Source: a virus (lineage: Duplodnaviria > Caudoviricetes). From it: a DNA stretch of 55,692 nucleotides. The DNA lies in the IMG/VR virus record IMGVR_UViG_3300029787_000058, positions 1 to 55,692 of that record; one strand, 5' to 3'. This document shows positions 1 to 55,460 of the stretch, one piece after another (within the stretch, counting starts at the first letter, position 1; each line of letters starts with the position of its first letter). Made by a program: the position numbers and the translations under genes. The notes beneath the pieces were generated by a model, which saw only the letters and a program-made list of their open reading frames with translations, was not told the origin of the DNA and ran no database searches.

Positions 1-566
1 ACGAAGGTGCTTTAATATTAAGAGACTCTAGTGGAACTCGATTTGCAGTTACAGTAGACGGAGGTGAATTACAAGTAAATCAATTATAATCATGTCTGTA
101 GGTGCTCCATTAATAAAAAATTGGCAAATAGTTCTTTGGTTTGTAATTGCTGTCTTTACGGCTGGTGGTGTTTTTAGTGAATTTACTTCTTTGAAGTCAG
201 AGTTAACAATGGTTCATGAAAGGTTAGACAATAAAGTAATGGTGATTAATAAACTTGAGGATAGAATTATTTCTATAGAAAAACAATTAGAATATGAGCG
301 TGGCCTCCTTGAGGCTACTATAAAATAAATAAGATGGCAACAACGATAAATTGGGATTGTAAAACAGTAGAGTGTTACTCTAGTATGGGTGGCCACACAG
401 ATGTTATATATCAAGTTCATTGGAGGGTAACTGCAACTTCAGATACACTAGATCCTGATGGAGACGCTTACATGGATTCTTCTATAGGTATTCAGGCTTT
501 GGACACAAGTGACCTTAGCGGGTTCACCGCGTTTTCCAATCTAACACATTCCGACATTATTTCTTG
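1..566. repeat. Terminal overlap, left copy (circular genome), carrying a 245-bp insertion
   Basis: 1-90 is identical to 55372-55461; 334-566 matches 55460-55692 except for 4 substitutions (375, 434, 444, 489). Confidence 0.95.
92..328 (+). CDS. Small membrane protein (N-terminal TM helix + coiled coil), paralog of 39269-39511
   Basis: Hydrophobic WQIVLWFVIAVFTAGGVF followed by a heptad-like tail; 63 of 70 aligned residues identical to 39269-39511. Confidence 0.85.
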   Translation: MSVGAPLIKNWQIVLWFVIAVFTAGGVFSEFTSLKSELTMVHERLDNKVMVINKLEDRIISIEKQLEYERGLLEATIK

Positions 567-678
567 GACACAAGCAGCCCTTGGCTCTAGTCAAGTAACA
601 GCGATAGAAACCGATGTGAAGTCAAAAATAAACGATCAGATAAGTCCATCAAAAAAAACTCTTACGGTAAACAATTAA
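334..678 (+). CDS. Tail-fibre-associated/assembly protein
   Basis: 114-aa ORF with W...VHW and F..LT...I..W pattern typical of small genes after phage fibres; follows the collagen fibre on the circle. Confidence 0.6.
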   Translation: MATTINWDCKTVECYSSMGGHTDVIYQVHWRVTATSDTLDPDGDAYMDSSIGIQALDTSDLSGFTAFSNLTHSDIISWTQAALGSSQVTAIETDVKSKINDQISPSKKTLTVNN

Positions 679-689
679 TTTAAACATTG

Positions 690-697
690 TATATTTG
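690..697 (+). promoter_or_regulatory. Bacteroidota -7 promoter element TATATTTG
   Basis: Exact TAnnTTTG match in the intergenic gap upstream of 741. Confidence 0.7.
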
Positions 698-740
698 AAG
701 CAGTTCAATATAATGCAATGAAAATCAACGCTCTAATTAC

Positions 741-3068
741 ATGAATATAGTATTCCATGTAGGCTACTCAGCCTCACCTTGGAATTGTTATACTCCAGGT
801 CTTGGAGGAACTGAACAGTGCGTAAATAAATTATCAGCGTCTCTAGCCATTAGGGGTCATAAGTTGTTTATAGTAGGACAAGTAGAACCTACAACTATAC
901 TTACAGAACATACGGATGAAATTGCTATACAATATTTACCTCTTGAGAGTTTTGACAAACTTCCTCAAAAGATAGATGTCCTTGTAGGCGTTTCTTATTT
1001 ACATTTTTATAAGCATTACAATTGTGCTCAAATAAATAAGGTTTTATTTTGGCTACATAACGAAGAGCCTTTCTATTGGTTTCAAGGAGAACAAATGACA
1101 CAAGAAGAAATCTTGGAGGGATATGATTTGTGCGACAATATAATTTGTTTAACTGATTGGCACAAGCAAGATTTTACATCCAGGGCTCGTAGGTGTCAGG
1201 ATAAAATAAAAATAATAGGTAATGGTATTTCTTTATCAGACATTCAAAAAGCAGAGTATAAAGTTCCTGGAAGTTATTTGTATTCTTCTCATCCAGAAAG
1301 AGGGTTGGATAAACTTTTAAACGAATGGCCAATAATAAAACGAAAACGAGCATACGCCACACTTGCTATTGCCACTCCAGCCTACGGCTTAGACTACTAT
1401 AATGAAAACTTTTCAGCAAGAGTTAAAAGCCTAGAGCATCAAAATGTAACTTTTTTAGGGTCTCTTTCTACAGAAGAACTTTATAAAAGAATGGGAACTA
1501 CAGAGACTTGGTATTACCCAACAGACTATAAAGAGACATATTGTATTACGGCTCTAGAGATGATGGCTCATGGCGTTATAGTAGACACTAATGAGATTGC
1601 TGGATTAAAAGAAACCATCAACGGTTTCAACAAATCTACGGACTGGGAAAGAATTAATAAATACATTCAGACCAGGGATTGGTCTAATGTCACTAACGAA
1701 TGGTTAAATTTAATAGATAACAAAATGAGCGCAGGACCTATACTTTCAAAAAAACAACCAACAGCGAAAACAAAAACATTAACAGTTCCCGAAGATCGGG
1801 ATGCGGACATGACATATGTAATATGTTTAGATCCTACAGAACAAAAAAAAGAAGACATTACTAAAAGATTTAAAGAGTTTGGTTTTAAATCTGAATTAAC
1901 TATATGGGATGCTTGCAATGGTAAGACCGGTAAGAATATGCCACCCGATTATGGAGTTTTTAAAGACTGGATAATACCTACCTCTTCTCATCGTTTTTAC
2001 AATAGGGAAATAACTCCTGGAGAAATAGGTTGTGCCGCGTCTCATCACGCTGTTTGGAAAGACGCTTCTGTTAATAATTATAAAAAAGTTTTAATACTAG
2101 AGGAGGACTTTTATGTTAAAAGAAAATTTGAAGCCAGCGAATTAAAAACTGATCAGCATTGGACTCTAATGTATTTCGCTTGTAATTTTGTTCAGCCTCC
2201 AAAAGGAGTAAATAAATATTTATGTAAGCCTAGGTATGCTTATAACGCTCATGCGTATATGCTTACCGACGAAGGAGTGCAAAGAATACTTGAACAAAAC
2301 TTTCATAATTATCTTTTCCCAGTTGATGAGTTTTTGCCTGCTACCTTCTGTGATCACCCACGAGGTGATCTAGGTTTTATAACTCAAGACACTATTGCTA
2401 TGGCCGTAAAAAATGATTTCTTAGGTCAGTTAAGCACTCGTGAAACCTCTACAACAGAACCAACACCGATTAACTGTTTAGCAGATTATTCTTACAAAGA
2501 GTTTGTGAATAGGTTTGTTCATGAGGCTGCTAAAACAAAAGAGTGGGATCTAGTAGTAGATGAAAATATACAAGATGTTTTTTCTTATCCGCTGTTCACA
2601 GAAGAGTTTTGTAGTTTGGTAATTGACGAAGCCAATAAATTAGACAAGTGGACAAAAGAGCGACATGACTACTACCCAACAACAGACATACTGTTAGAGT
2701 CAATAGGGCTAGACAAAACTTATTCTAAGGTTCTAAAAGAGTTTGTTTATCCCTGTGCTATTCACAAATGGCAGTTGCACGGTAAGCCTTGGCCTGATCT
2801 GTCTAGTGAAAACTTTATGATTAAGTATCAAGAAGACGTACAAGGTCACTTGTCTTTACATCACGACAGCGGATTAATATCTTGCGTCCTGACATTGAAC
2901 AGAGACTTTGAAGGAGGGGGCACTTGGTTCTGGAGACAGCAAAAAGTTCATAAAGGAAATGTCGGAGAGATATCTATACATCCTGCTAAAATTACTCATC
3001 GCCATGGGGGAAGACCTATATCAAAGGGCGAGAGATATATAATCGTTTCATTCTGTTCTAGACCATGA
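741..3068 (+). CDS. Three-domain GT-B glycosyltransferase / GT25 (COLGALT-like) glycosyltransferase / PLOD-like lysyl hydroxylase (2OG-Fe(II) dioxygenase)
   Basis: GT-B: GLGGTEQ, YSSHPERGL, ETYCITALE. GT25: GEIGCAASH, LILEEDF, AHAYML, PVDEFLP..F..HP. Lysyl hydroxylase: PTTDI, HHD, FEGGGTWF, HP..ITHRHGG, RYIIVSF. Confidence 0.88.
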   Translation: MNIVFHVGYSASPWNCYTPGLGGTEQCVNKLSASLAIRGHKLFIVGQVEPTTILTEHTDEIAIQYLPLESFDKLPQKIDVLVGVSYLHFYKHYNCAQINKVLFWLHNEEPFYWFQGEQMTQEEILEGYDLCDNIICLTDWHKQDFTSRARRCQDKIKIIGNGISLSDIQKAEYKVPGSYLYSSHPERGLDKLLNEWPIIKRKRAYATLAIATPAYGLDYYNENFSARVKSLEHQNVTFLGSLSTEELYKRMGTTETWYYPTDYKETYCITALEMMAHGVIVDTNEIAGLKETINGFNKSTDWERINKYIQTRDWSNVTNEWLNLIDNKMSAGPILSKKQPTAKTKTLTVPEDRDADMTYVICLDPTEQKKEDITKRFKEFGFKSELTIWDACNGKTGKNMPPDYGVFKDWIIPTSSHRFYNREITPGEIGCAASHHAVWKDASVNNYKKVLILEEDFYVKRKFEASELKTDQHWTLMYFACNFVQPPKGVNKYLCKPRYAYNAHAYMLTDEGVQRILEQNFHNYLFPVDEFLPATFCDHPRGDLGFITQDTIAMAVKNDFLGQLSTRETSTTEPTPINCLADYSYKEFVNRFVHEAAKTKEWDLVVDENIQDVFSYPLFTEEFCSLVIDEANKLDKWTKERHDYYPTTDILLESIGLDKTYSKVLKEFVYPCAIHKWQLHGKPWPDLSSENFMIKYQEDVQGHLSLHHDSGLISCVLTLNRDFEGGGTWFWRQQKVHKGNVGEISIHPAKITHRHGGRPISKGERYIIVSFCSRP

Positions 3069-3283
3069 GTACCACACCTAAATATTATATTGGAAAACAT
3101 AAACGCATAGAGGCGTTTGATGTTGTCCTAGACTTTCAAGCAGACAACTATAATCTGGGGACTGCTATTACATACCTACTAAGGGCAGGCAAAAAACCAG
3201 ATAACCCAATTACTCAAGATATTCAAAAAGCCATAGCGCACTTAAAGAAGGAACTGGATCATCAAGAAAAAATCAATAGTTAA
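3065..3283 (+). CDS. DUF3310-like small phage protein
   Basis: P.YY....IEAFD...NLGTAITYLLRAGKK...DIQKA pattern. Confidence 0.7.
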   Translation: MSTTPKYYIGKHKRIEAFDVVLDFQADNYNLGTAITYLLRAGKKPDNPITQDIQKAIAHLKKELDHQEKINS

Positions 3284-3321
3284 ATGTTGTATCTTCGTCA
3301 GATACTTTAAACCTAATAAAA

Positions 3322-3870
3322 ATGAAATACTTCATAGAGATAGGATCAAATAGTTTTAACACCTTAATACCGTTAGCAGAACACGGATGGACAGGTGTAA
3401 TTGTTGAGCCTTTATCACAATACTTAGAAGAGTTACCTGTTCATGATAATGTAACTTATGTTAATTCCGCTATATCTACTCACGACGGCTCATGCGTTAT
3501 GAAGGTATATAATGAAGATCTTTGTGAAAGAGATCCAGACTTTAGAGGAATGTCTACTCTTGAAACTGAGGGGCTTGTAGAACAAAATGCTGACCTGGTT
3601 CATGACGAAGAGGTGGAGTGTATGACCTATCAAACTTTACTAGACACGCATTGCTCTGACTTCCCTCATGTGGACTTTTTAAAAATAGACGCGGAAGGTC
3701 ATGATTTAAAAATACTAGAAACTATAGACTTCCATGGTCCTCTTAGACCCAAAGTCATTAAGGTTGAACACGCTCATTGTAATGACATTAAAATGTCTGC
3801 TTTGTTAGAAGAAGCGGGATACTTTAATATGGTTGACAACACTGATATTTACGCCATATCTTACGAATAA
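3322..3870 (+). CDS. FkbM-family SAM-dependent methyltransferase
   Basis: FIEIGSN, GVIVEP, VNSAIS, DFLKIDAEGHD, IKVEH motifs. Confidence 0.85.
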   Translation: MKYFIEIGSNSFNTLIPLAEHGWTGVIVEPLSQYLEELPVHDNVTYVNSAISTHDGSCVMKVYNEDLCERDPDFRGMSTLETEGLVEQNADLVHDEEVECMTYQTLLDTHCSDFPHVDFLKIDAEGHDLKILETIDFHGPLRPKVIKVEHAHCNDIKMSALLEEAGYFNMVDNTDIYAISYE

Positions 3871-3878
3871 AAAGATAC

Positions 3879-3886
3879 TATCTTTG
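3879..3886 (+). promoter_or_regulatory. -7 promoter TATCTTTG, 4 nt before ATG (probably leaderless)
   Basis: TATCTTTG-ttga-ATG(3891). Confidence 0.65.
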
Positions 3887-3890
3887 TTGA

Positions 3891-4181
3891 ATGCCTGACA
3901 AGCCAAAAAAAGATTATCGATTAACTAAGGTTGGGGTTTCTGCTTTTAATAAACCAAAGAGAACTCCATCCCATCCAAAAAAATCACACGTTGTGGTTGC
4001 AAAGGAAGGTAAGAAAATAAAGATAATTCGTTTTGGTCAGCAAGGAGCAGACACGGTAACAGAGGAAAACCCTAGTCCTTCAAGGAAAAAGAAAAGAGCA
4101 TCATTCAAAGCCAGGCACGCAAAGAATATTGCTAAGGGGAAAATGAGCGCTGCATATTGGGCAAATAAAGTAAAGTGGTAA
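3891..4181 (+). CDS. Small basic putative DNA-binding virion protein
   Basis: Lys/Arg-rich; IRFGQQG, SFKARH and SAAYWA..VKW motifs recurrent in aquatic viruses. Confidence 0.65.
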   Translation: MPDKPKKDYRLTKVGVSAFNKPKRTPSHPKKSHVVVAKEGKKIKIIRFGQQGADTVTEENPSPSRKKKRASFKARHAKNIAKGKMSAAYWANKVKW

Positions 4182-4213
4182 TCTCACCCCCTCAGAATAA
4201 TAATCATAATTCG

Positions 4214-4221
4214 TAAATTTG
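4214..4221 (+). promoter_or_regulatory. -7 promoter TAAATTTG
   Basis: Exact consensus match upstream of 4241. Confidence 0.65.
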
Positions 4222-4240
4222 ATAGATTAAATAAATAACT

Positions 4241-5113
4241 ATGTTACAAGGTTACAACAGTAGAGACGACGAGTCAATGGGAGAAAGAGATTATCTCCGG
4301 GGTATTAAGAAAAAGTTTATGCAAGGTCTTAAATCCAGAAGAGACGAGAGTCGTGGAGAAAATAAAGCAGAAGGAATGCGCCCTAATGATTTTGTCAAGG
4401 CAGAAGCCGGAGCAAAACTAAAGCAGATGTACGGAATGGGAGGAACTATGAAGTATCGCAAGGGTGGCGCTAACCTAGCAATGACTAACAGCGAAGCCGT
4501 AAGAAGCGGACGAGCAGGCAGAGGTGCTGGAGAGCAAGAGTATGGTATGGGTGGAAAGATGGAGTACGAAAAAGGCGGTATGCTAAAGGCTCTACTTGAA
4601 GATCCAAAGCAAAGAGATATGGCAAGAGCCATTCTAAGCGACACCAATACAAAAGCAGTAACTGACGGAAAGGCTGGTCGTTATGAGATGGGCGGTGAGG
4701 TTCCTGTAGTAGAAGAAGAAAAGCAGACTTTCATAATGAGAAGTATGCCAAAGTCCACTGAAGACTATCCGGCTGAAATATACAATGCTTCAATGCCTAT
4801 CCTAAAAGATATGCTTAGAGGGTCAAAACTTGCACCTGAAGATGAGCAGATGGTTGCAGAGTACATTGTAGGAACAGAGGATATTGGTTCTGTAAATCCT
4901 AGATTAAGAGATATGGCAAGAGCCGCTAGACAAAGAGGTATGGACTACCTAAGATCAGAAGCCGGTGGTGAATTTATTATGGACAAGTACTTTGACCAAA
5001 AAACTGGAGAAGAAGTATCTGAAGATTTTATTATGGGTCTTCAAGAAAAAGGCGAAAGTTTTAGACCACTTAGCGACACAGGTGAAGGTAGATATGTTTA
5101 TGAAATAAGATAA
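4241..5113 (+). CDS. Hypothetical virion-internal protein with five YxxGG repeats
   Basis: YGMGG x2, YRKGG, YEKGG, YEMGG. Confidence 0.6.
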   Translation: MLQGYNSRDDESMGERDYLRGIKKKFMQGLKSRRDESRGENKAEGMRPNDFVKAEAGAKLKQMYGMGGTMKYRKGGANLAMTNSEAVRSGRAGRGAGEQEYGMGGKMEYEKGGMLKALLEDPKQRDMARAILSDTNTKAVTDGKAGRYEMGGEVPVVEEEKQTFIMRSMPKSTEDYPAEIYNASMPILKDMLRGSKLAPEDEQMVAEYIVGTEDIGSVNPRLRDMARAARQRGMDYLRSEAGGEFIMDKYFDQKTGEEVSEDFIMGLQEKGESFRPLSDTGEGRYVYEIR

Positions 5114-5133
5114 CTTATATATTTATATAAGAA

Positions 5134-5166
5134 TAAAAAAAGGGGGCTTATGGCCCCCTCTTTTAT
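5134..5166. terminator. Bidirectional intrinsic terminator
   Basis: A-tract, AGGGGGC-ttatg-GCCCCCT stem and T-tract between convergent genes. Confidence 0.85.
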
Positions 5167-5183
5167 TATCTGTGTTTAGGAAT

Positions 5184-5588
5184 TTATTGTAACACTCCAT
5201 TGACAACTTTACGTGTAGGCTTGTTTAACCTAACACCTGTTGATCCTGAAGCAAAATAACCAGGAGCCTTACTTCCCTCCTTATTCTCCCAGTAGTTAAC
5301 GTAGTGATCATCTTCAAAGTAGAAGGTGTATCCGTTTGTTACTGTAGGAAAGATGTCAGCATTTTTGATATAAGACTCTGCTTGATTCATTAATACTCCA
5401 AGCAATTCTTGGGCTTTATACTTAGACGCAATATCAAAGTGTCGGCTGCCATTATTACCTAAAGGATATAGTGTGTGTTGTATGCCACATTCGATTAAGG
5501 GCCACATGGACTCTCTTGCTTGTGGTTGATCTTGTGCTTGTACTCCCAAAGAGAGAGCAACGACGAACGATAAAAATAGATGTTTCAT
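5184..5588 (-). CDS. Exported protein with signal peptide (lone antisense gene)
   Basis: Probable start at 5588, MKHLFLSFVVALSLGVQA|Q (SPase I-like site); early-type leader AAACCAAATCTT. Confidence 0.7.
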   Translation of the reverse strand: MKHLFLSFVVALSLGVQAQDQPQARESMWPLIECGIQHTLYPLGNNGSRHFDIASKYKAQELLGVLMNQAESYIKNADIFPTVTNGYTFYFEDDHYVNYWENKEGSKAPGYFASGSTGVRLNKPTRKVVNGVLQ

Positions 5589-5634
5589 TTTATTAAGATT
5601 TGGTTTCACTGCTGTAAACCTAAGCATAATTATT

Positions 5635-5642
5635 TAGATTTG
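5635..5642 (+). promoter_or_regulatory. -7 promoter TAGATTTG for head operon
   Basis: Consensus match upstream of 5670. Confidence 0.65.
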
Positions 5643-5669
5643 CAAGAACAACTATAAAATTTAATTGAT

Positions 5670-6812
5670 ATGAGTACTGAAAGCAACATGGAACAGGCAG
5701 TTAAAGATGCAGGTTTCGAGATAATGAGTGGCCCACCTTCATCAACGGAGCAGGCCCAGACTACAGAAACTCCAGCACCTCAAACGGAAGGAGTTCCTGA
5801 AAACAATACACCGACTGAACCCGCAGTTCAACAAACAGCGGAACCAGTTGAGCAAGCACAACAGGAACCCGCGCCTGTACAAGAGCAAGTGGCACAAGAG
5901 TCACAACCTCAAGTAGAAAGCGGAAGTTCTATGACAACCGAACAATCTGCTACTAAGTTAGATTTTCTAGATAGCCTGGAAACTTCCGAAACGGAAACTC
6001 CCGCTGTTGAAGAGTCTGATGATGTTGCAGAGTTAGCGTCAACTCTAGATCCTAGAATCAAAGTCATTGCTGATTTTGTTGAGAAGACAGGAAGAAACCC
6101 AGAAGATTGGTTTCGTTATCAGTCCTTAGAGCCATCCGAAATGGATGACAGTACTGTAATGCGAGTCCACCTTGCGAGTGAATATCCTTCTTTAGGTAAC
6201 GATGAAATTGATACATTAATCAATTCAAAGTACAAGACAGATGAATCATTGCACAACGATGAAGAGGTGAAGATTGCAAAATTACAATTGAAGATTGACG
6301 CGCAAAAGGCTAGGCAGGCGATTGACACACTCCGTAGTGAGTATGTTGCACCGGCTGTTGAACCGAATAATGATGTGAGTGAAGATGGGTCTAATCCATT
6401 TGATACGTCATGGCTACAAGAAAGCGGACGCTCGCTGGCAGGTTTAGATAAGATATCTTTTGATTTGCCAGGTGGAAAAGAGTTTCACTTTGGTGTGGCG
6501 GAAACGTATCGTAATGAGTTAAACAAATCGAATACGAACATGAATGAGTACTTTGATAAGTACGTAGGTGATGATGGGTCTTGGGATCACGATCTCTGGA
6601 ATATGCACAGGACGGTTACAGATAACCTTCCAAATATTATAGAGAATGTGTATCGACAAGGCATGAGTGACGGTCAAAGAGGCATAGTCGAAAAGGCAGC
6701 CAACATAGATCCAAACGCACCAGCAGCACCTGTACAACGTCAAGACAACTCAGTTGCTAACCAAGTGCTTGACGCATTAGGAAGGCGGCAACCATTTTTG
6801 AAAAATATGTAA
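5670..6812 (+). CDS. Putative capsid scaffolding protein
   Basis: Acidic, E/Q/P-rich disordered N-terminus; immediately precedes the major capsid gene. Confidence 0.6.
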   Translation: MSTESNMEQAVKDAGFEIMSGPPSSTEQAQTTETPAPQTEGVPENNTPTEPAVQQTAEPVEQAQQEPAPVQEQVAQESQPQVESGSSMTTEQSATKLDFLDSLETSETETPAVEESDDVAELASTLDPRIKVIADFVEKTGRNPEDWFRYQSLEPSEMDDSTVMRVHLASEYPSLGNDEIDTLINSKYKTDESLHNDEEVKIAKLQLKIDAQKARQAIDTLRSEYVAPAVEPNNDVSEDGSNPFDTSWLQESGRSLAGLDKISFDLPGGKEFHFGVAETYRNELNKSNTNMNEYFDKYVGDDGSWDHDLWNMHRTVTDNLPNIIENVYRQGMSDGQRGIVEKAANIDPNAPAAPVQRQDNSVANQVLDALGRRQPFLKNM

Positions 6813-6831
6813 ACATTTAAAATAAAAAACA

Positions 6832-8220
6832 ATGGCATTAACATCAAGCCCTCCAACGTATAATGATAGCAAGCCTGCTGTCTTTAGACAACTGGATCCA
6901 GCGAAATACTCTTCTTTAGGAGATTTCATTGACGAAATCAACGCTCCCGATAACAGGGATCAGTTGGTTAAAACTTATGGCTACCAACAAATTTCTGGTG
7001 GCTTAACAGGATTTTTATCCTTAACCGGTGCTATTAGAGCATCCGGAACAGCGGACGAAGTTCAGTACTGGGAAGAGACTAGATTGCATTCAACTGCAAA
7101 CGTATCTCCAACAGCAACTGCTGCAATCGGAGCAACATCTGTAACTGCTACTAAAGCAACAGGAGTCGCTTCAGTTCTTCGTTTGAATGACGTAGTTCTT
7201 GTACAAGGTGAAGATCGTTTCATCGTTGCTGCTATTTCCCCAACAGGAGAGATTGCTTCAACAGCGACAGCAACTTACACGTTTGAATCACTAGCAACTT
7301 CAGGACTTACTGCTACAGGAAGCACTGCTGCTGTTGACATTCCTATTATTGGTAACTTGTTTGGACAAGGAACTGATCAAAACAAAGGTTACTTAGAGAG
7401 TAACGTAATCAAGCGTACTAACCCTTATAATATTATCAAGGAGGTATTCAAGGTTACAGGATCTCAAGCAACTAATATTGGATGGATCAACGTAGGTAAC
7501 GGAGATTACAGATGGTATGTTAAAGGAGAGATGGACACTCGTGCTCGTTTCTTAGACAAGCGTGAAATGATGATGCTTCTCGGTGAGAAGATCGGAAACG
7601 CTGCCAACCTAAATGCAAATGTTTCTACTATCACAGGTGGTGAAGGTTACTTCTCTGCTATTGAGAATAGAGGTATTGTTAATGACGGACAGATAGACAA
7701 CTTTACTGAGATGGATCTTCTTATTGCAGAACTTGACAAGCAAGGCGCTGCTCCTGAGTACGCTATGTATGTTAACACTGCTCAAGGATTAGCCATTGAT
7801 GATATGGTTGCCTCATTGAACGGTGCAGCAGGTTTCGCTAATACTACTAATGGCCTTAGTGCATTTGGTGGACGTGGAAACGAACTCGGTTTTGATTCGT
7901 TTAAGCGTGGAGGATATACTTTCCACAAACACGCTTGGAAACTTCTTAACGACCCAACTTTGTTAGGTCTTAGCGATTCTAAGTACAAAGGTGCTATGAT
8001 TCCTTTGACTACAGTTGTTGATCCAAAGACTGGTGATCGTGCCGCTGCTTTGGAACTTAACTACAAGGATACAAACGGATACAGCCGTGAGATGGAGCAC
8101 TGGATGACTGGTTCTATTTTAGGTGTCAATAACACAAATACTGACGACCTTCAATTTAACTATCGTTCTGAGTGTACTCTAGTTACTCGTGCTGCTAACC
8201 AGCATATCTTAATCAAGTAA
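6832..8220 (+). CDS. Major capsid protein
   Basis: 462 aa; YWEE.RLH, WINV...YRWY.KGE.DTR.RF, LGFDSFKRGGYTFHK and YRSE..L....AN typical of Bacteroidota podovirus capsids; strongly biased codons; followed by a hairpin. Confidence 0.8.
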   Translation: MALTSSPPTYNDSKPAVFRQLDPAKYSSLGDFIDEINAPDNRDQLVKTYGYQQISGGLTGFLSLTGAIRASGTADEVQYWEETRLHSTANVSPTATAAIGATSVTATKATGVASVLRLNDVVLVQGEDRFIVAAISPTGEIASTATATYTFESLATSGLTATGSTAAVDIPIIGNLFGQGTDQNKGYLESNVIKRTNPYNIIKEVFKVTGSQATNIGWINVGNGDYRWYVKGEMDTRARFLDKREMMMLLGEKIGNAANLNANVSTITGGEGYFSAIENRGIVNDGQIDNFTEMDLLIAELDKQGAAPEYAMYVNTAQGLAIDDMVASLNGAAGFANTTNGLSAFGGRGNELGFDSFKRGGYTFHKHAWKLLNDPTLLGLSDSKYKGAMIPLTTVVDPKTGDRAAALELNYKDTNGYSREMEHWMTGSILGVNNTNTDDLQFNYRSECTLVTRAANQHILIK

Positions 8221-8236
8221 TCACTTTAGATTCTTA

Positions 8237-8271
8237 GGGAACGGAGGGGGTTTTGCCCCCTCCTCACTCCC
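8237..8271 (+). terminator. Hairpin after capsid gene (terminator or mRNA stabiliser)
   Basis: GGAGGGGG-ttttg-CCCCCTCC with outer GGGA/TCCC; U-tract is displaced. Confidence 0.6.
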
Positions 8272-8297
8272 AAATAACTTTTTAATTATATTAAATT

Positions 8298-9119: not shown

Positions 9120-9128
9120 ATTTGTAGT

Positions 9129-9212
9129 ATTCATAATGGATTTTTAGGACGTACAAGGATTTGGTTTTCCACGTTCCAACCAAGGGGGGTTCCGCAAGAA
9201 CCCCCTTTGTTA
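9129..9212 (+). ncRNA. Candidate ~85-nt small RNA
   Basis: Bounded by promoter TAGATTTG (9117-9124) and terminator (9183-9216); no ORF of note; GGACGU/ACGUUCC stem presents AAGGAUUUGGUUUU. Confidence 0.55.
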
Positions 9213-9216
9213 TTTT
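9183..9216 (+). terminator. Intrinsic terminator
   Basis: AGGGGGGTTC-cgcaa-GAACCCCCTT followed by TGTTATTTT. Confidence 0.85.
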
Positions 9217-9218
9217 CG

Positions 9219-9226
9219 TATATTTG
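9219..9226 (+). promoter_or_regulatory. -7 promoter TATATTTG for tail operon
   Basis: Consensus match upstream of 9246. Confidence 0.7.
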
Positions 9227-9245
9227 CTAAAATGCTTAAAAGATT

Positions 9246-10744: not shown

Positions 10745-10746
10745 TC

Positions 10747-15798: not shown

Positions 15799-15805
15799 TA
15801 ATGAG

Positions 15806-15813
15806 TACTTTTG
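15806..15813 (+). promoter_or_regulatory. -7 promoter TACTTTTG, 4 nt before ATG (probably leaderless)
   Basis: TACTTTTG-tatt-ATG(15818). Confidence 0.65.
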
Positions 15814-15817
15814 TATT

Positions 15818-19256: not shown

Positions 19257-19268
19257 AACTAATAGAAT

Positions 19269-50102: not shown

Positions 50103-50510
50103 ATGGCCTGTAACTCATGTAATCAATCGTCTTCTGCTTGCAGATGTCAAACCCCTAAAAATGTTGACCTGTCCGCTGCTACACAATTAAATATTTGTTG
50201 TAGACGTGCGAATACATTTATACTTAAAGCCAATGTAAAAGACTCGACCGGAACGGCTATTGATTTAACCCTTTACACTTACGAGATGCAAGTAAGGGAG
50301 TATGACAACGGCCCATTAATTATATCTAATTCAAACATAACTATAACCGGAACTGCCGCTGGTCTTCTTACCATTACAATTACCGACACTAACATGACTG
50401 TAGATGCTGGTACATATGTGTATGGAGTAGAGTTTACTCTAACAGCGACTGGGGAAAAAGAAACGTGGTTCTACGGAACATTCGATGTACAGCAAAATAT
50501 TGTAAACTAA
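50103..50510 (+). CDS. Fibre attachment/BppU-like structural protein
   Basis: IDLT.Y...MQVR, G.L.I.I, AGTYVY, G.F.V..N; Cys-rich N-terminus. Confidence 0.55.
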   Translation: MACNSCNQSSSACRCQTPKNVDLSAATQLNICCRRANTFILKANVKDSTGTAIDLTLYTYEMQVREYDNGPLIISNSNITITGTAAGLLTITITDTNMTVDAGTYVYGVEFTLTATGEKETWFYGTFDVQQNIVN

Positions 50511-50513
50511 ATT

Positions 50514-53500
50514 ATGTCAGACACAGGACCTATAGAGATTATTGTAACTGATCAGCCTGGAGATGTAATAACTATTACTCAACCTAGCCCTATATCTATT
50601 GACATTAATAATGGAGCCGTAGAACAACTCGTTGGATCAAAAGGTCAAAAAGGCGAGAAGGGCGAGAAGGGCCAGAAAGGTGAGATAGGTGTTAAAGGAC
50701 AAAAGGGGGATCAGGGAGAGCAAGGTATAAAAGGAGACAAGGGACAAAAAGGTCTTGATGGAGATGGAGTCAAAGGACAAAAGGGTGAAGTCGGTGAGAA
50801 AGGTCAAAAAGGAGAACAAGGAGTTAAAGGTGACAAAGGAGTTAAAGGTGAGGTTGGAGACAAAGGACAAAAAGGAGAGGTTGCTGAAAAGGGATCCAAG
50901 GGTGAAGTAGGTGAAAAGGGACAGAAAGGAGAACAAGGCGACAAAGGCCAGAAAGGTGAAGTAGGCGATAAAGGTCAGAAAGGTGAGGTCGCTGAAAAAG
51001 GATCTAAAGGTGAGGTTGGTGAAAAAGGTCAAAAGGGTGAAGTAGGGGAGAAAGGAACTAAAGGTGAAGTAGGCGAGAAAGGACAGAAGGGCGAAGTCGG
51101 AGAGAAAGGACAGAAAGGTGAAGTCGGAGAGAAGGGACAAAAAGGCGAGAAGGGAGAAAAGGGTGAGAAAGGCGAAAAGGGTGAGAAAGGTCAGAAGGGC
51201 CAGAAAGGACAACAGGGTCCATTACCTGCTGCAACCTATGAGTACGCTTTCAGCACCGCTATAACAGGAAGTCCTGCTACTGGCATTGCTAGGTTTAACA
51301 ATGAGACTCAGAACACATCTACATCGGTCGTTATAAACTCTACCGATAAAAACGGAGACACTATACCCACCCCAAGCGCAGGATCAGTATTGGTTAGATC
51401 TGTAAGTACATCCACAGACTTTATAAACTTTAACATAGATAGTGTTGCTCTTGACACAGGAATAATAACCTGTACTGTCACTGTACAAGGTAGTAGTGGA
51501 AACAGTCCATTTAGTGATGGAGAAGAAATAACTTTATCCTTTGCCGAAGGTGGAGCCAAGGGGCAGAAGGGTGAGAAAGGCGAGAAAGGAGAAAAGGGTG
51601 AAAAAGGACAGAAGGGTGATAAAGGCGAGAAGGGAGAAAAAGGCGAGAAAGGTCAGAAAGGAGACAAGGGCCAAAAAGGTGAAAAAGGAACTAGAGGTCA
51701 AAACTCTGCGAACAGTTACCCCTATAATTTTAGAACAGACACTACAGGAAATCCAGCATCAGGAGACCTGAGAGGAAACGAAACAGATCAAAATACTTCT
51801 ACAAGGATCGTTCTCAATCAAGTCGATGGGGATGGTTTAACTATTCCTGCGGTGGGTGCTACTCAGGCAGGAACTATAACTATAAGGGCCGTAGAGACTC
51901 AATCTAATTTCTTGACGTTTGATTTTAGCGGAGGAGATACCGATTCTGGAGAGATAGAACTTACTGGTTCTATTTCCGCTTCAAGTGCCACCAGTCCTTT
52001 TACTGACAATACAGCAGTCACTGTTTCTTTTGTGTTTGATGGCGCTAAAGGAGATAAAGGACAGAAAGGCGAAAAAGGAGAGAAGGGAGAAAAGGGAGAG
52101 AAAGGACAGAAAGGAGACAAAGGTCAAAAGGGAGAGAAAGGAACCAGGGGTCAGAACTCTGCCAATAGTTATCCTTACAATTTTAGAACTGCCACAAGTG
52201 GAAGTGTTGCTAACGGTGACATGAGAGGTAATGAGTCTACTCAGAATACTTCTACACGAATTGTTCTTAGCCAAGTAGACAGCGATGGATTAACAATTCC
52301 TTCTGTAGCCGCAGATCAAAATGGTTCGGTTACAATACGAGAAGTTGAGAACCAGGCTAACTTTATAACATTTGCTTTTACAGGTGGTGATACATCTGGA
52401 GGTGAGATTGAACTTACTGGTTCTGTAAGCGCCTCAAGCGCGGCTAACCCATTCAGCGATAGTGATGCTGTAATTGTTTCATTTCAGAATGATGGAACTA
52501 AAGGTCAAAAAGGCGTTAAAGGAGAAAAGGGTGAGAAGGGAGAAAAAGGCGAAAAAGGAGAGAAGGGCGAAAAGGGACAGAAGGGAGACAAAGGACAGAA
52601 AGGTGAAAAAGGAACTAGAGGTCAGTCGGCTGCTAACATCTACCCTTATGTGTTTAGCACAGCAACCTCTGGTAATCCAGTCAGCGGAGAACTAAGAGGT
52701 AATGAATCTACACAAAACGCTTCTACACGAATTGTTATTAACCAGTCCGATAGCGACGGCTTAACCATCCCTGCGGTTGGTGCAAATGATGTTGGTACTG
52801 TTACCATAAGAGAAGTAGAGAACCAAACAAACTTTATTACTTTCGACTTTACTTCTGGGGATACTGGTTCAGGAGAAATAGAACTAACAGGGTCTGTAAC
52901 TGCATCCAGTGCAAGTAATCCGTTTAGTGATCAAGACGCTGTTAATATATCTTTTGTATTTGATGGTGCTAAAGGACAAAAAGGAGAAGCAGGTGCTTCA
53001 GTCAAAGGACAAAAAGGTGAGAAAGGCGAGAAGGGTGAAAAAGGACAGAAGGGTGATAAAGGTCAAAAAGGAGAGCGTGGCGTAAATGCTGGAAACGTAT
53101 ACAACTTTACCTTTAAGACAGACACAAGTGGGGATATGCCCGCTGGAGAAGTAAGAGGTAATGAATCTACACAGAATAGTACCACTCGACTGAATTTCAA
53201 TAATCAAGATTCAGACAACGAATCTGTAGTTACTCCAACAGCGCCAGGTATTGTTACTGTTAGAGAAGTGGAAACTACAAGTAACTTTTATAAGTTTTCT
53301 TATACCTCTGTTGGAACAACTGGTGATCAAATAGAATTAGAAGGATCGGTTAGCGCCTCAAGCGCGTCTAACCCTTTTAGTGACAATGACAGTGTGACAT
53401 TATCTTTTCAGTTTAATGGCTCTGATGGATCCAAAGGACAGAAAGGTCAAGATGGTACTTCAGTAAAAGGTCAGAAAGGAGAGAAGGGCGAGAAGGGCGA

Positions 53501-55460
53501 GAAGGGTCAGAAAGGCCAAGATGGTGCTTCAGTAAAAGGTCAGAAGGGTCAAGCAGGAGCAGATGGAGCAGCGGCCACTGTTCAGGTTGGATCTACTACA
53601 ACGCTCTCTGCTGGAGAAGATGCTACTGTTGAGAACAGCGGTAGTACGGAGGACGCTACTTTTGATTTTGGAATACCTCAAGGTATTGCTGGCGCTAAGG
53701 GTCAAAAGGGTCAAGATGGTTCTTCAGTAAAAGGACAGAAGGGTGAAGCCGGTTCTTCTGTTAAAGGACAAAAAGGAGAAGCAGGAACCAATGGATCTGA
53801 TGGATCTAAAGGTCAGAAGGGTCAAGAAGGAGAACCTGGTACTTCTATAAAAGGACAAAAAGGAGAAGCAGGTACTAACGGATCAGACGGATCGAAAGGA
53901 CAGAAGGGTCAAGACGGTGCTTCAGTAAAGGGTCAAAAAGGTCAAGCAGGAACAAATGGTTCTGATGGTTCGAAGGGACAAAAGGGTGAATTAGGAGAAC
54001 CTGGTGATTCAGTCAAGGGTCAAAAAGGTCAGGCAGGAACTAATGGGTCTGATGGTTCTAAAGGTCAGAAAGGTGAAGCGGGAACAAATGGATCAGATGG
54101 TTCTAAAGGACAAAAGGGTCAAGCGGGTACTAACGGTAGTAATGGTTCTAAAGGTCAGAAAGGTCAGTCGGGATCTAATGGAGTTGCTGCTACTATTCAG
54201 GTTGGGACTACTTCAACATTAGGCGCTGGAGAAAATGCTACTGTTGAAAACACTGGAGATGATCAAGACGCTACTTTTGACTTTGGTATACCCACAGGTG
54301 CTACTGGCGCAAAAGGACAAAAAGGTCAGGCTGGATCTAACGGTTCTTCAGTTAAAGGACAGAAAGGAGAACCAGGATCGAATGGTTCTAACGGATCGAA
54401 TGGGTCTAAAGGTCAGAAAGGTCAAGCGGGTACTAACGGATCGAATGGTTCTAACGGATCAGACGGTGCGAAAGGTCAGAAAGGACAAGCAGGATCTAAC
54501 GGATCGAACGGTTCTAACGGATCAGATGGTGCGAAAGGTCAGAAGGGACAAGCGGGATCTAACGGATCCTCTGTTAAAGGACAGAAAGGTGAACCTGGAA
54601 CTAATGGTTCTAATGGTTCTAACGGATCGGATGGTTCTAAAGGTCAGAAAGGTCAGGCGGGATCTAATGGTTCTTCAGTAAAAGGACAAAAAGGACAAGC
54701 AGGTGCTGATGGATCAAATGGATCGAATGGATCAAACGGTTCGAAAGGACAAAAAGGTCAAGCAGGAACTAATGGTTCTAACGGATCAAATGGATCGGAT
54801 GGTTCGAAGGGTCAGAAAGGTCAAGCAGGTGCTGATGGATCAAATGGATCGAATGGATCGAATGGATCAGACGGTTCTAAAGGACAAAAAGGACAGGCGG
54901 GTACTAATGGATCAAATGGATCTAATGGATCAAACGGTTCTAAAGGTCAGAAGGGTCAAAAAGGAGCAGAGTCATCTGCCTCTGTTACAGGTTCAGGAAG
55001 CGCAACAAGAGTTGCTTTCTGGTCAGGATCTCAAGCGTTAAGTAGTAATGCAGATCTTTACTGGAACAATGTTAGTGGAACTTCTGGAACTGGTTTAGGA
55101 ATTGGAACCACTTCAGTAGGAACGATAAACGGTACTGCTTTCGGAGGAATGAGACTTCATGTTGTTGGTAGTGGAAACATAGGAAGATTATGTTTACAAG
55201 GAGCCGTACAGGGAACTATGTTAATGAACGCTTCTGGAGGTACTTCCAACCAGAGAATTAAGTTTATACAGAGTAAGCAAAGTGAATTTAGAATGGGTAA
55301 GGTTTCAGATTCTGGAACAGAAACTACTCAATTCTCTATAGACAATAGTGGTAACTGTGAAATAGATACTAACGAAGGTGCTTTAATATTAAGAGACTCT
55401 AGTGGAACTCGATTTGCAGTTACAGTAGACGGAGGTGAATTACAAGTAAATCAATTATAA
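50514..55460 (+). CDS. Collagen-like tail fibre (Gly-X-Lys rich)
   Basis: Long GQK/GEK/GDK runs separated by five ~110-aa globular repeats, then GSN/GSD/GQK repeats and a beta-rich tip. Confidence 0.9.
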   Translation: MSDTGPIEIIVTDQPGDVITITQPSPISIDINNGAVEQLVGSKGQKGEKGEKGQKGEIGVKGQKGDQGEQGIKGDKGQKGLDGDGVKGQKGEVGEKGQKGEQGVKGDKGVKGEVGDKGQKGEVAEKGSKGEVGEKGQKGEQGDKGQKGEVGDKGQKGEVAEKGSKGEVGEKGQKGEVGEKGTKGEVGEKGQKGEVGEKGQKGEVGEKGQKGEKGEKGEKGEKGEKGQKGQKGQQGPLPAATYEYAFSTAITGSPATGIARFNNETQNTSTSVVINSTDKNGDTIPTPSAGSVLVRSVSTSTDFINFNIDSVALDTGIITCTVTVQGSSGNSPFSDGEEITLSFAEGGAKGQKGEKGEKGEKGEKGQKGDKGEKGEKGEKGQKGDKGQKGEKGTRGQNSANSYPYNFRTDTTGNPASGDLRGNETDQNTSTRIVLNQVDGDGLTIPAVGATQAGTITIRAVETQSNFLTFDFSGGDTDSGEIELTGSISASSATSPFTDNTAVTVSFVFDGAKGDKGQKGEKGEKGEKGEKGQKGDKGQKGEKGTRGQNSANSYPYNFRTATSGSVANGDMRGNESTQNTSTRIVLSQVDSDGLTIPSVAADQNGSVTIREVENQANFITFAFTGGDTSGGEIELTGSVSASSAANPFSDSDAVIVSFQNDGTKGQKGVKGEKGEKGEKGEKGEKGEKGQKGDKGQKGEKGTRGQSAANIYPYVFSTATSGNPVSGELRGNESTQNASTRIVINQSDSDGLTIPAVGANDVGTVTIREVENQTNFITFDFTSGDTGSGEIELTGSVTASSASNPFSDQDAVNISFVFDGAKGQKGEAGASVKGQKGEKGEKGEKGQKGDKGQKGERGVNAGNVYNFTFKTDTSGDMPAGEVRGNESTQNSTTRLNFNNQDSDNESVVTPTAPGIVTVREVETTSNFYKFSYTSVGTTGDQIELEGSVSASSASNPFSDNDSVTLSFQFNGSDGSKGQKGQDGTSVKGQKGEKGEKGEKGQKGQDGASVKGQKGQAGADGAAATVQVGSTTTLSAGEDATVENSGSTEDATFDFGIPQGIAGAKGQKGQDGSSVKGQKGEAGSSVKGQKGEAGTNGSDGSKGQKGQEGEPGTSIKGQKGEAGTNGSDGSKGQKGQDGASVKGQKGQAGTNGSDGSKGQKGELGEPGDSVKGQKGQAGTNGSDGSKGQKGEAGTNGSDGSKGQKGQAGTNGSNGSKGQKGQSGSNGVAATIQVGTTSTLGAGENATVENTGDDQDATFDFGIPTGATGAKGQKGQAGSNGSSVKGQKGEPGSNGSNGSNGSKGQKGQAGTNGSNGSNGSDGAKGQKGQAGSNGSNGSNGSDGAKGQKGQAGSNGSSVKGQKGEPGTNGSNGSNGSDGSKGQKGQAGSNGSSVKGQKGQAGADGSNGSNGSNGSKGQKGQAGTNGSNGSNGSDGSKGQKGQAGADGSNGSNGSNGSDGSKGQKGQAGTNGSNGSNGSNGSKGQKGQKGAESSASVTGSGSATRVAFWSGSQALSSNADLYWNNVSGTSGTGLGIGTTSVGTINGTAFGGMRLHVVGSGNIGRLCLQGAVQGTMLMNASGGTSNQRIKFIQSKQSEFRMGKVSDSGTETTQFSIDNSGNCEIDTNEGALILRDSSGTRFAVTVDGGELQVNQL

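Follow-up and report, generated by a model that had tools for sequence, protein, structure and literature searches.

The locus described here spans both ends of a viral DNA record of 55,692 nucleotides (Caudoviricetes; IMG/VR record IMGVR_UViG_3300029787_000058), which is called the window below. It contains a gene for a protein in which two glycosyltransferase domains are joined to a lysyl hydroxylase domain, and a gene for a collagen-like fibre. The features are:

741..3068, + strand: three-domain enzyme gene (GT4-type GT-B + GT25 + lysyl hydroxylase), 775 aa, ATG start
741..1724, + strand: GT-B domain, GT4 type, residues 1-328 (PF13692, PF00534, EX7E motif E265...E273, Foldseek)
1725..1790, + strand: disordered linker, residues 329-350 (pLDDT <50)
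1791..2450, + strand: GT25 domain, residues 351 to ~570 (PF01755; resembles the C-terminal catalytic domain of COLGALT1/GLT25D1)
2493..3065, + strand: collagen-type lysyl hydroxylase domain (Fe(II)/2-oxoglutarate dioxygenase), residues ~585-775 (matches to L230 and LH3)
50514..55460, + strand: collagen-like fibre gene, 1648 aa, proposed substrate (PF01391, E 1.9e-115, 17 stretches)
50103..50510, + strand: 135-aa protein, phrog_1084, before the fibre gene (PHROGs match; 48 of 80 related loci)
92..328, + strand: 78-aa ORF, an insertion/deletion variant in one of the two overlapping ends (4 of 80 loci)
334..678, + strand: 114-aa DUF7936 protein between the fibre and enzyme genes (PF25590, E 7.6e-20; second partial copy at 55460-55692)
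3322..3870, + strand: FkbM-family methyltransferase, directly downstream of the enzyme gene (PF05050, E 8e-15)
3891..4181, + strand: 96-aa basic protein, phrog_7595, downstream of the enzyme gene (PHROGs match; 48 of 80 loci)

The fibre protein has 260 Gly-X-Y triplets and 160 lysines, 139 of them at Y and none at X; 154 of the 160 precede glycine, in the order X-Lys-Gly. Window positions 1-88 are a copy of the fibre gene's final 88 bases, and positions 55460-55692 are a copy of 334-566 with 4 mismatches. These terminal repeats indicate that the record overlaps itself at its two ends, which represent two variants, one with and one without the ORF at 92..328. From the fibre stop to the enzyme start the distance is 652 nt with this ORF and about 409 nt without it, which bears out an earlier, sequence-only reading that had placed the enzyme about 0.4-0.65 kb after a Gly-X-Lys collagen fibre gene. 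The form without the ORF was also seen in contigs from two other samples: in run X18 base 88 continues straight into base 334 on one contig, and run X6 has loose ends consistent with this.

The neighbouring genes are kept to different degrees among the related loci. Throughout this phage group the fibre gene is preceded by the phrog_1084 gene, whose 48 loci are every portal-bearing locus plus one more. The phrog_7595 gene is likewise found throughout the group. The DUF7936 gene occurs at 10 of the 80 loci and thus is no constant part of the set. The FkbM-family methyltransferase gene is limited to close relatives (7 of 80 loci), and its product could be an accessory modifier that works with the enzyme.

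Predicted transcription signals in positions 1-4300 were at background: 15 promoter-like sites against 14.3 expected, from a tool that has no Bacteroidota promoter model, and 4 terminator-like sites against 2.3 expected. Three RNA-library runs hold contigs covering 864-1440, 2209-3070 and 2743-3007 of the gene at 90-99% likeness. Because RNA libraries can hold DNA and the contigs stem from relatives, they do not show expression. Seawater metagenomes carry near-identical DNA (15 runs with at least half of the sampled words; the 20 rows with any sampled words come from 13 studies), so the phage is no rarity. A near-identity DNA search of window positions 1-20000 against deposited phages gave no match.

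Domains and active sites of the enzyme

The open reading frame at 741..3068 is present as the sequence-only reading had claimed, and the domain limits that it gave (~355-570 and ~600-775) lie near the computed ones. The motifs it named are readable in the translation: DVFSYPLFTEEFC, YPTTDI, ENFMIKY, LHHDS, FEGGGTWF, IHPAKITHRHGG and ERYIIVSF for the hydroxylase, and GEIGCAASHHAVW, LILEED and PVDEFLPATFCDHP for the COLGALT-type domain. Its observation of three domains in one protein also holds: Pfam, a sequence search of solved structures and Foldseek agree, far above chance. In the predicted structure the three domains fold confidently (mean pLDDT 89.7), and the comparison of each fold, set beforehand as a check, favours a PLOD/L230 hydroxylase, a COLGALT1-like GT25 and a GT-B domain. 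The linker at residues 329-350 differs in length between relatives. The protein collection searched holds 236 relatives of the enzyme, and residue conservation was scored over 74 related sequences. No NCBIfam model matched the 775-aa protein at its cut-off.

The C-terminal domain is a PLOD-like lysyl hydroxylase. Residues 592-772 match the hydroxylase domain of mimivirus L230 (E 3e-21) and residues 588-772 match human LH3 (E 1.9e-19) in the sequence search of solved structures. Foldseek of the predicted structure ranks LH3 entries first (E 5e-22) and places the domain on L230 (6ax6_B) with a TM score of 0.86 by target length, an rmsd of 1.8 A and 30% identity. In L230, H825, D827 and H877 form the Fe(II) triad, and Y814 and R887 hold 2-oxoglutarate (PMC5802723). 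In a sequence alignment these residues correspond to H707, D709, H755, Y696 and R765 of the phage protein, all five of which are invariant in the 74 relatives. The hydroxylase of L230 is described as a tail-to-tail dimer formed by L873 and an aromatic pocket of Y798, Y801 and Y831. Counted on a gapped alignment, the counterpart of L873 is I751, a residue conserved in at least 90% of sequences. W677, H680 and I713 occupy the pocket positions by a manual count where the alignment is gapped, and judged from this alignment the aromatic pocket does not appear to be clearly kept. A full-length PLOD consists of a GT-A domain, an accessory domain and the hydroxylase. No PLOD glycosyltransferase or accessory domain (PF25342) matches in the 775-aa protein at E <= 0.1 (Pfam). 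Thus, the protein as a whole is not a PLOD orthologue; it shares the hydroxylase domain alone.

The middle domain is a COLGALT-like GT25. PF01755 matches residues 358-468 with 68.8 bits against a cut-off of 24 (E 7e-19), residues 350-543 match COLGALT1 in the search of solved structures (E ~1e-12), a sequence alignment gives E 4e-13 over residues 410-542, and Foldseek of the predicted structure against COLGALT1 gives E 1.5e-15. GLT25D1 is described as having an 'EDD' metal motif (D437) and a 'DE' motif with the catalytic base (D522) (PMC12987934). In the phage protein, LILEED (E454-E455-D456) aligns with LVFEDD of COLGALT1, the metal motif, and PVDEFLP (D529-E530), the catalytic-base motif, is identical in the two proteins. 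E454 and D529 are invariant among the 74 sequences, and D456 is present in at least 90% of them.

The N-terminal domain resembles retaining GT-B enzymes, namely MshA, tll1591, PimA, BshA and glycogen synthase (Foldseek). The Pfam matches, at residues 185-308, are barely above their cut-offs (PF13692, 30 bits against 27; PF00534, 27.1 bits against 26.4), and PF13439 falls under its own. An EX7E motif in the C-terminal half of the GT-B fold (E265-x7-E273), which we take to be the motif of GT4-type retaining GT-B glycosyltransferases, is invariant in the 74 sequences. MshA, PimA, BshA and tll1591 give TM scores of 0.6-0.68 by target length, and these structural neighbours of the predicted domain point to no particular acceptor. 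The likeness to tll1591, an alpha-1,2-glucosyltransferase, was considered as a hint to the Glc-alpha-1,2-Gal linkage of collagen and rejected, since GT4 enzymes with unrelated acceptors score equally.

Association with lysine-rich collagens

Co-occurrence of the enzyme with Gly-X-Lys collagens had been set beforehand as a check on the sequence-only reading, and it was found in several unrelated phage groups. At all 51 loci of this phage group with at least 3 kb of upstream DNA, a collagen ORF on the same strand ends 41-1712 nt before the enzyme gene. Many of these loci are near-identical, so that they do not count as independent cases, and a conserved gene order is expected inside one phage group. 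The composition of the collagens is distinctive. In 36 distinct collagen ORFs linked to the enzyme, lysine takes 4609 of 11490 Y positions (40%) and 31 X positions, compared with 96 of 1969 Y positions (4.9%) and 47 X positions in 43 unselected control records, which are those searched out of 68 collagen-bearing viral contigs. Five of the 43 control collagens have lysine at 20% or more of Y positions, and their mostly fragmentary records contain no hydroxylase. One control record has a hydroxylase-like match, and its collagen has more lysine at X than at Y.

Fibre and enzyme are jointly present or absent. In this phage the fibre gene is situated between those for portal and scaffold, which makes a fibre of the head or neck possible. 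In two podovirus relatives without the enzyme, the portal gene is followed directly by the scaffold gene, and these genomes have neither a collagen match over the Pfam cut-off nor a hydroxylase. The spacing differs in other groups. In the T4-like clade no collagen gene was found at 10 loci within 7-10 kb of upstream DNA, and one lies about 11.5 kb upstream of the enzyme in all three whole records. None of three loci of a two-domain clade has a collagen gene in the upstream DNA covered, and a collagen match is missing altogether from one of five whole records, which is 39% complete.

The sequence-only reading had named a lack of linkage between homologues and lysine-rich collagens as evidence against itself, and outside phages such a lack was partly seen. 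The bacterial relatives, at nine loci, are GT4 + hydroxylase proteins, GT25 + hydroxylase proteins or single domains, and no collagen-like ORF was found within up to 10 kb on each side of any of the nine. With one or two loci sampled per genome, two of five bacterial genomes with relatives carry a collagen rich in lysine at Y. Among cultured phages, 15 records match the enzyme and none over 80% of the query, so the full three-domain protein was not found there. A relative of the GT-B domain alone, in spring podovirus MW202524.1, belongs to a cluster of glycosyltransferases that follows the capsid gene; it is uninformative on collagen.

Possible functions and their implications

From the homologies, the predicted structure and the linkage to lysine-rich collagens, we think it probable that the phage enzyme hydroxylates lysines of the fibre and adds at least one sugar to them. 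We propose that, within the infected cell, it completes the collagen-like fibre of the phage's own virion. The C-terminal Fe(II)/2-oxoglutarate domain, of the PLOD/L230 type, would hydroxylate the Y-position lysines of the Gly-X-Lys repeats. The GT25 domain, an inverting, metal-dependent transferase of the kind found in COLGALT1 and at the N-terminus of L230, would then add a first hexose, either galactose or glucose. The N-terminal GT4-type domain, probably retaining, would probably add a second sugar. The complete series of three steps is close to an even call, and we lean slightly against it. The sequence-only reading had described the protein as the animal pathway fused into one enzyme. 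The hydroxylase and the GT25 domain are homologous to the animal enzymes, but for the second sugar the description is an analogy, because the enzyme that performs that step in animals shares no homology with the N-terminal GT-B domain.

The GT4 domain could have a different job. The GT25 and hydroxylase core alone might act on the fibre and leave a single sugar on hydroxylysine, while the GT4 domain glycosylates some other target, for example serine and threonine in the non-collagen modules of the fibre, a different virion protein or a glycan of the host envelope. Stand-alone proteins of GT25 + hydroxylase (about 430-500 aa) exist, so the core can do without the GT4 domain, and L230 is reported to put glucose alone on hydroxylysine (PMC9614988). 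The fibre is also rich in serine and threonine (180 S and 127 T), and the structural neighbours of the GT4 domain use very different acceptors (Foldseek). However, podovirus-like and T4-like phages, two unrelated groups, both carry the GT4 fusion with the same domain order, and some cyanophages have a different second transferase (PF25342) in the same protein, which suggests a recurrent need for two. Moreover, in bacteria the GT4 domain is joined directly to the hydroxylase in proteins that have no GT25, which argues that GT4 works on the hydroxylase product. We consider this division of labour unlikely, if worth keeping in mind.

Targets other than the fibre fit the evidence less well. The enzyme might act on the host surface and remodel its lipopolysaccharide, its capsule or a host protein, perhaps as a block to superinfection, with the fibre next to it by accident of a variable region. 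Pelagimyophage glycosyltransferases near tail-fibre genes have been read as modifiers of the host O-chain (PMC7029224). Relatives of the phage enzyme carry names such as 'GR25 family glycosyltransferase involved in LPS biosynthesis' or 'involved in cell wall biosynthesis', and the bacterial ones sit amid ordinary chromosomal genes. A lysyl hydroxylase is not known to take part in LPS synthesis, however, and the nearest characterised proteins for two of the domains are specific to collagen rather than LPS enzymes. The strong and specific enrichment of lysine at Y in the linked collagens, together with the gain or loss of fibre and enzyme as a pair, also speaks against the host surface, which we regard as a very improbable target. 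DNA modification is a known function of phage 2-oxoglutarate dioxygenases and glycosyltransferases, and residues 615-769 weakly match a PHROGs family labelled 'DNA endonuclease' (1e-8), so base hydroxylation followed by glycosylation of the phage DNA was weighed as well. Both the fold and the active site are specifically lysyl-hydroxylase-like, no TET/JBP- or AlkB-type entry is among the best 50 Foldseek matches listed, and the PHROGs annotation of the phage places the enzyme gene within the virion module, outside the replication module. A role in DNA modification is thus scarcely credible.

If the enzyme does modify the fibre, collagen lysine chemistry would have a wider distribution than the available literature indicates. 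Hydroxylation of collagen lysines and glycosylation of hydroxylysine are documented there for animals and mimivirus, and prokaryotic collagens, per reviews, mostly lack such modifications (PMC8968730). The phage enzymes would extend this chemistry to bacterial viruses and, by way of the GT4 + hydroxylase relatives, to bacteria. They would also change the reading of many fibre-adjacent glycosyltransferases of marine phages, now taken as host-surface modifiers (PMC7029224), and would bear on the origin of the animal collagen-modifying enzymes. A single soluble enzyme from a bacterial context, able to hydroxylate and glycosylate Gly-X-Lys repeats, could aid the production in E. coli of recombinant collagen with these modifications, a need described as unmet (PMC9546862).

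We speculate, at odds a little below even, that one polypeptide runs a complete animal-type collagen lysine pathway in the bacterial cytoplasm, that about 140 sites per fibre chain would become a dense coat of hydroxylysine-linked disaccharides, and that fibre and enzyme form a cassette mobile between podovirus-like phages, T4-like phages and bacteria. In that case, collagen lysine modification would be rooted in phages and bacteria rather than in animals.

Comparison with known systems

In our search of the literature, we found no description of a collagen lysine hydroxylase-glycosyltransferase fusion in phages. A related prediction is that of Iyer et al. 2010, in which prokaryotic collagen-like and tail-collar proteins are modified by adjacently encoded dioxygenases (PMC2938197). 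The bacterial systems described there do not involve PLOD-type lysyl hydroxylases with glycosyltransferases.

The human enzymes LH3/PLOD3 and COLGALT1/GLT25D1 (PDB 6fxk, 8zgc, 9evj, 9u7h) have hydroxylase and GT25 catalytic domains homologous to those of the phage protein, and their substrate motif, X-Lys-Gly, fits the phage fibre. They differ in arrangement. In animals these activities belong to separate proteins of the ER, whereas the phage has a single protein. In animals the GT-A domain of LH3 supplies the second sugar, and in its place the phage has an unrelated GT-B domain of GT4 type.

Mimivirus has several related enzymes. L230 (PDB 6ax6/9nev), like the phage enzyme, joins a PLOD-type hydroxylase to a GT25-like transferase on its N-terminal side and is encoded alongside collagen-like protein(s) of its own virus. 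L230 acts on collagen lysines as both hydroxylase and glucosyltransferase, and it is functional on co-expression in E. coli (PMC9614988, PMC9546862). Its activity has thus been measured, whereas the phage enzyme is known here from sequence and predicted structure. L230 is a protein of 895 aa with a long middle region, from a giant virus of amoebae (PMC9614988); the phage enzyme lacks the middle region, has the extra N-terminal GT4-type domain and comes from a virus with a bacterial host. R699, a galactosylhydroxylysyl glucosyltransferase, and R655, a GT25-like protein (PDB 9crz) that weakly matches the phage GT25 domain (E 0.0024 and 0.00037), are also viral collagen glycosyltransferases, but they are separate proteins with single functions. 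R699 is homologous to the glycosyltransferase domain of LH3 and not to the phage GT4 domain, going by the published description (PMC9546862).

The nearest counterparts in cultured phages are proteins of cyanophages S-CAM9 (YP_009322466.1) and S-PRM1 (YP_010097865.1), both annotated 'hypothetical protein', in which GT25 and hydroxylase domains are 27-28% identical to the phage enzyme over residues 404-774. In contrast to that enzyme, these proteins have 613 aa, no GT4 domain and a PLOD glycosyltransferase domain between GT25 and hydroxylase (in the S-CAM9 relative, PF25342 at E 7.5e-47). They are encoded by T4-like cyanomyoviruses, in which two PF13640 oxygenase genes precede the enzyme gene. 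As in the phage described here, the enzyme gene follows a collagen gene: a gene for a tail fibre with collagen (gp222 in S-CAM9), which has 22-23 lysines at Y and none at X, precedes it by about 1.5 kb.

A three-domain enzyme

The gene at 741..3068 (+) begins with an ATG codon and its translation is a protein of 775 aa. Every PLOD- and COLGALT-type motif that the sequence-only reading had claimed can be read in this translation, and the fusion it proposed, of a GT-B domain, a COLGALT-like GT25 domain and a PLOD-like hydroxylase, is borne out by Pfam, by a search of all solved structures and by Foldseek. The three-domain feature is real. In Pfam, PF01755 (GT25) matches residues 358-468 with 68.8 bits against a cut-off of 24, PF13692 and PF00534 (GT-B families) match residues 185-308 barely above their cut-offs, and PF25238, the OGFOD2-like N-terminal part of lysyl hydroxylase domains, matches residues 592-672. 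The sequence search of solved structures aligned residues 592-772 with the hydroxylase domain of mimivirus L230 (E 3e-21), 588-772 with human LH3 (E 1.9e-19) and 350-543 with human COLGALT1 (E about 1e-12).

An AlphaFold2 model made with an alignment of 74 relatives has a mean pLDDT of 89.7 and a pTM of 0.47. It contains three compact domains and a disordered linker (residues 329-350), and the low pTM fits domains that may have no fixed mutual position. The top PDB match of the model in Foldseek is LH3 (E 5e-22); the L230 hydroxylase domain matches with a TM of 0.86 by target length (rmsd 1.8 A, 30% identity) and COLGALT1 with E 1.5e-15. The N-terminal domain resembles retaining GT-B enzymes (glycogen synthase, MshA, the alpha-1,2-glucosyltransferase tll1591, PimA/PimB and BshA). 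The model's closest counterpart among predicted viral structures is a Megavirus courdo11 'procollagen-lysine 5-dioxygenase' (E 2e-25).

The EX7E motif is a mark of retaining GT4 enzymes, and in the GT-B domain it is formed by E265 and E273, invariant in the 74 sequences. The iron ligands (H825, D827, H877) and 2-oxoglutarate binders (Y814, R887) reported for L230 (PMC5802723) align with H707, D709, H755, Y696 and R765 of the enzyme, all invariant across the same alignment. In GLT25D1, D437 of the 'EDD' motif is described as a metal ligand and D522 of the 'DE' motif as the catalytic base (PMC12987934); these motifs align with E454-E455-D456 and D529-E530, of which E454 and D529 are invariant and D456 is present in at least 90% of the sequences. 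The L230 dimer residue L873 aligns with I751, and the aromatic pocket of the L230 dimer has no clear alignment with the enzyme (W677, H680 and I713 there).

The fibre, its gene and the record ends

The proposed substrate, a 1648-aa collagen-like fibre encoded at 50514..55460 (+), has 260 Gly-X-Y triplets in 21 runs. They are separated by five non-collagen modules that resemble one another, each about 110 aa long:

residues 238-346
residues 398-509
residues 549-660
residues 706-817
residues 859-968

Collagen segments and modules alternate like beads on a string, and a non-collagen domain of about 160 aa forms the C-terminus. Collagen lysyl hydroxylases act at X-Lys-Gly. The fibre has 160 lysines, 139 at Y and none at X, and Gly comes next after 154; hydroxylysine is described at the Yaa position (PMC12987934). 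Proline is scarce (31 of 1648 residues, one at X).

The phage genome is roughly 55 kb. Podoviruses of Flavobacterium, Cellulophaga, Maribacter and Tenacibaculum have large terminases with 40-48% identity to its own. In order, the genes encode the terminase, the portal, a 135-aa protein (phrog_1084), the fibre and the enzyme; small genes come next, and then genes for scaffold-like and capsid-like proteins. Because its gene is located between the portal and scaffold genes, the fibre may belong to the head or neck and not to the tail.

The end of the fibre gene recurs at window 1-88, and window 55460-55692 copies 334-566 with 4 mismatches, which fall in the DUF7936 gene. The record ends (window 1-333 and 55373-55692) therefore represent two overlapping variants, distinguished by a 245-nt insertion that contains a 78-aa ORF (92..328), whose product has one predicted membrane helix and a coiled-coil-like tail. 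The genome is circular or circularly permuted, and the assembly has merged two of its population variants. Base 88 is joined to 334 in a contig from sequencing run X18 and loose ends in run X6 are concordant, so the form without this ORF is present in other samples. Across the two variants, 409-652 nt separate the fibre gene from the enzyme gene, in agreement with the 0.4-0.65 kb first estimated.

Linkage of the enzyme to collagen genes

The protein collection holds 236 relatives of the enzyme, many of them full-length three-domain proteins on 40-65-kb contigs; the fullest source name of the three-domain forms is 'GR25 family glycosyltransferase involved in LPS biosynthesis'. In IMG/VR, a relative is encoded on 276 stretches, and 80 loci were retained for comparison. 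In the podovirus-like group (57 loci), a same-strand collagen-like ORF ends 41-1712 nt upstream of the enzyme gene in 51 of the 51 loci with at least 3 kb upstream, the other six having too little upstream DNA to be counted. T4-like phages, with a Gp23 capsid protein, account for 14 of the 80 loci. No collagen gene lies within 7-10 kb upstream in the 10 of these with enough DNA, and all three whole records have a large same-strand collagen ORF about 11.5 kb upstream. For the two-domain form (GT25 and hydroxylase), one of two whole records has a 1453-aa collagen ORF, and none was found in the second (39% complete).

A 613-aa 'hypothetical protein' of two cultured cyanophages, S-CAM9 and S-PRM1, joins GT25, a PLOD GT domain and a hydroxylase:

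L091 8845-10686, S-CAM9 613-aa protein YP_009322466.1, PF25342 (PLOD GT domain) E 7.5e-47

In both phages the gene follows genes for two oxygenases and for a tail fibre (about 1830 aa, 59 triplets) in which Lys is at Y 22-23 times and never at X. In S-CAM9 both oxygenases belong to PF13640 and the tail fibre is collagen-bearing. S-CAM9 is a culturable system in which the chemistry could be examined.

Two relatives of the podovirus-like group lack the enzyme, namely a complete spring podovirus genome and Flavobacterium phage elemoE 6-9C. In both, the portal gene directly adjoins the scaffold gene, and neither has a collagen above the Pfam cut-off or a hydroxylase match. Fibre and enzyme therefore constitute one inserted block; in 48 loci this block always includes phrog_1084 and a gene for a 96-aa basic protein besides the collagen and enzyme genes.

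Other genes of the window encode a methyltransferase, a glycosyltransferase and an oxygenase:

3322-3870 (+), FkbM-type methyltransferase, downstream of the enzyme gene
26216-27205 (-), further GT-B glycosyltransferase (phrog_7162, E 3e-47), in the replication-side genome arm
44968-45525 (+), PF13640 2-oxoglutarate/Fe(II) oxygenase (prolyl-hydroxylase-like family, E 1.3e-9), directly before the terminase gene

The phrog_7162 protein is in none of the 80 loci, which comprise the enzyme neighbourhood only. The FkbM methyltransferase occurs in close relatives only (7 of 80 loci) and is at most accessory to the enzyme. In locus L003, DUF7936 and the enzyme are separated by an extra 249-aa protein (9255-10004) that has a weak O-methyltransferase match. 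Methyltransferases beside the enzyme gene in close relatives may methylate the glycan. In a sister clade whose enzyme is about 50% identical (L013), a DUF6445 protein and a PF13640 oxygenase flank the enzyme gene (9450-10004, 12331-12930). Since the linked collagen is proline-rich at X (Gly-Pro-Lys, Gly-Pro-Thr, Gly-Pro-Gln), this oxygenase is a candidate phage prolyl hydroxylase.

The linkage to Lys-rich collagens that the sequence-only reading proposed to examine is seen in phages and not in bacteria, where no collagen-like ORF was found up to 10 kb on each side of relatives at nine genomic loci. An Aliishimia genome, a Granulosicoccaceae genome and a Chromatiales symbiont of Bugula neritina encode GT4-hydroxylase proteins of 561-581 aa. 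Such genes in marine Alpha- and Gammaproteobacteria, without a GT25 domain, are:

L238 9977-11659
L239 9905-11647
L242 9938-11677

Two further loci, in a Rhodobacteraceae and a second Granulosicoccaceae genome, match the query alike by sequence, a Flavobacteriaceae genome has a GT25-hydroxylase protein followed by a PF13640 oxygenase, and the remaining loci have single domains. The Aliishimia gene is surrounded by ordinary chromosomal genes. Collagen-like ORFs occur elsewhere in 5 of 5 bacterial genomes with relatives, compared with 4 of 14 control genomes. A 785-aa ORF of Aliishimia, 1.3 Mb from the enzyme gene, has Lys at Y in 64 of 158 triplets and once at X; this and two Chromatiales ORFs (8-9 of about 40 triplets) are the only Lys-rich ones among the few bacterial collagen loci sampled. 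Thus, physical linkage is a phage feature.

Controls came from a pattern scan of viral contigs for any run of 12 Gly-codon triplets, with 80 loci found on 68 contigs; 50 contigs were taken forward and 43 records searched. The hydroxylase profile matches one of the 43. Lys occupies 96 of 1969 Y positions (4.9%) and 47 X positions in the control collagens, and five records reach at least 20% at Y. The 36 distinct enzyme-linked ORFs have Lys at 4609 of 11490 Y positions, or 40%, with a median of 36% and a minimum of 18%; Lys is at X 31 times, and a single ORF accounts for 25 of these. The enzyme-linked ORFs are mutually related, so the contrast is descriptive and carries no probability. The sole control match (L232 in record G022, 21006-21410, E 6.8e-12) is a hydroxylase-like 208-aa open frame that may be a stand-alone form, and the collagen sampled there has Lys four times at X and twice at Y.

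Predicted modification and known systems

Every computational check run upheld the collagen-modification interpretation first proposed, which is supported as a predicted function. Most likely, the hydroxylase domain would hydroxylate Y-position lysines of nascent fibre chains, the inverting GT25 domain would transfer a first hexose, and the GT4 domain would add a second sugar. Two sugar steps are supported by three observations: two unrelated phage groups share the order of the GT4 fusion, the cyanophage protein has a different second transferase, and bacteria pair GT4 directly with the hydroxylase. The L230 hydroxylase is reported to function in E. coli (PMC9546862). L230 adds glucose, whereas animals add galactose at that place (PMC9614988), so the sugars of the window enzyme are not to be guessed.

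In the literature covered, with subscription journals and bioRxiv supplements outside it, no PLOD-type hydroxylase and no glycosylation of hydroxylysine is described for a phage. For bacterial collagen-like proteins, Iyer et al. 2010 predicted dioxygenases of other families (PMC2938197), and a review describes bacterial collagens as mostly without such modifications (PMC8968730). Glycosyltransferases adjoining fibre genes were interpreted as host O-chain modifiers in a pelagimyophage study (PMC7029224). The nearest characterised system is L230, and the nearest pathway is that of animal LH3 with COLGALT1. The enzyme has the hydroxylase and GT25 domains in common with both. It differs from PLOD/LH3, and has no Pfam match to PF25342, the PLOD GT domain; in place of that domain and the accessory region it carries a GT4 domain.
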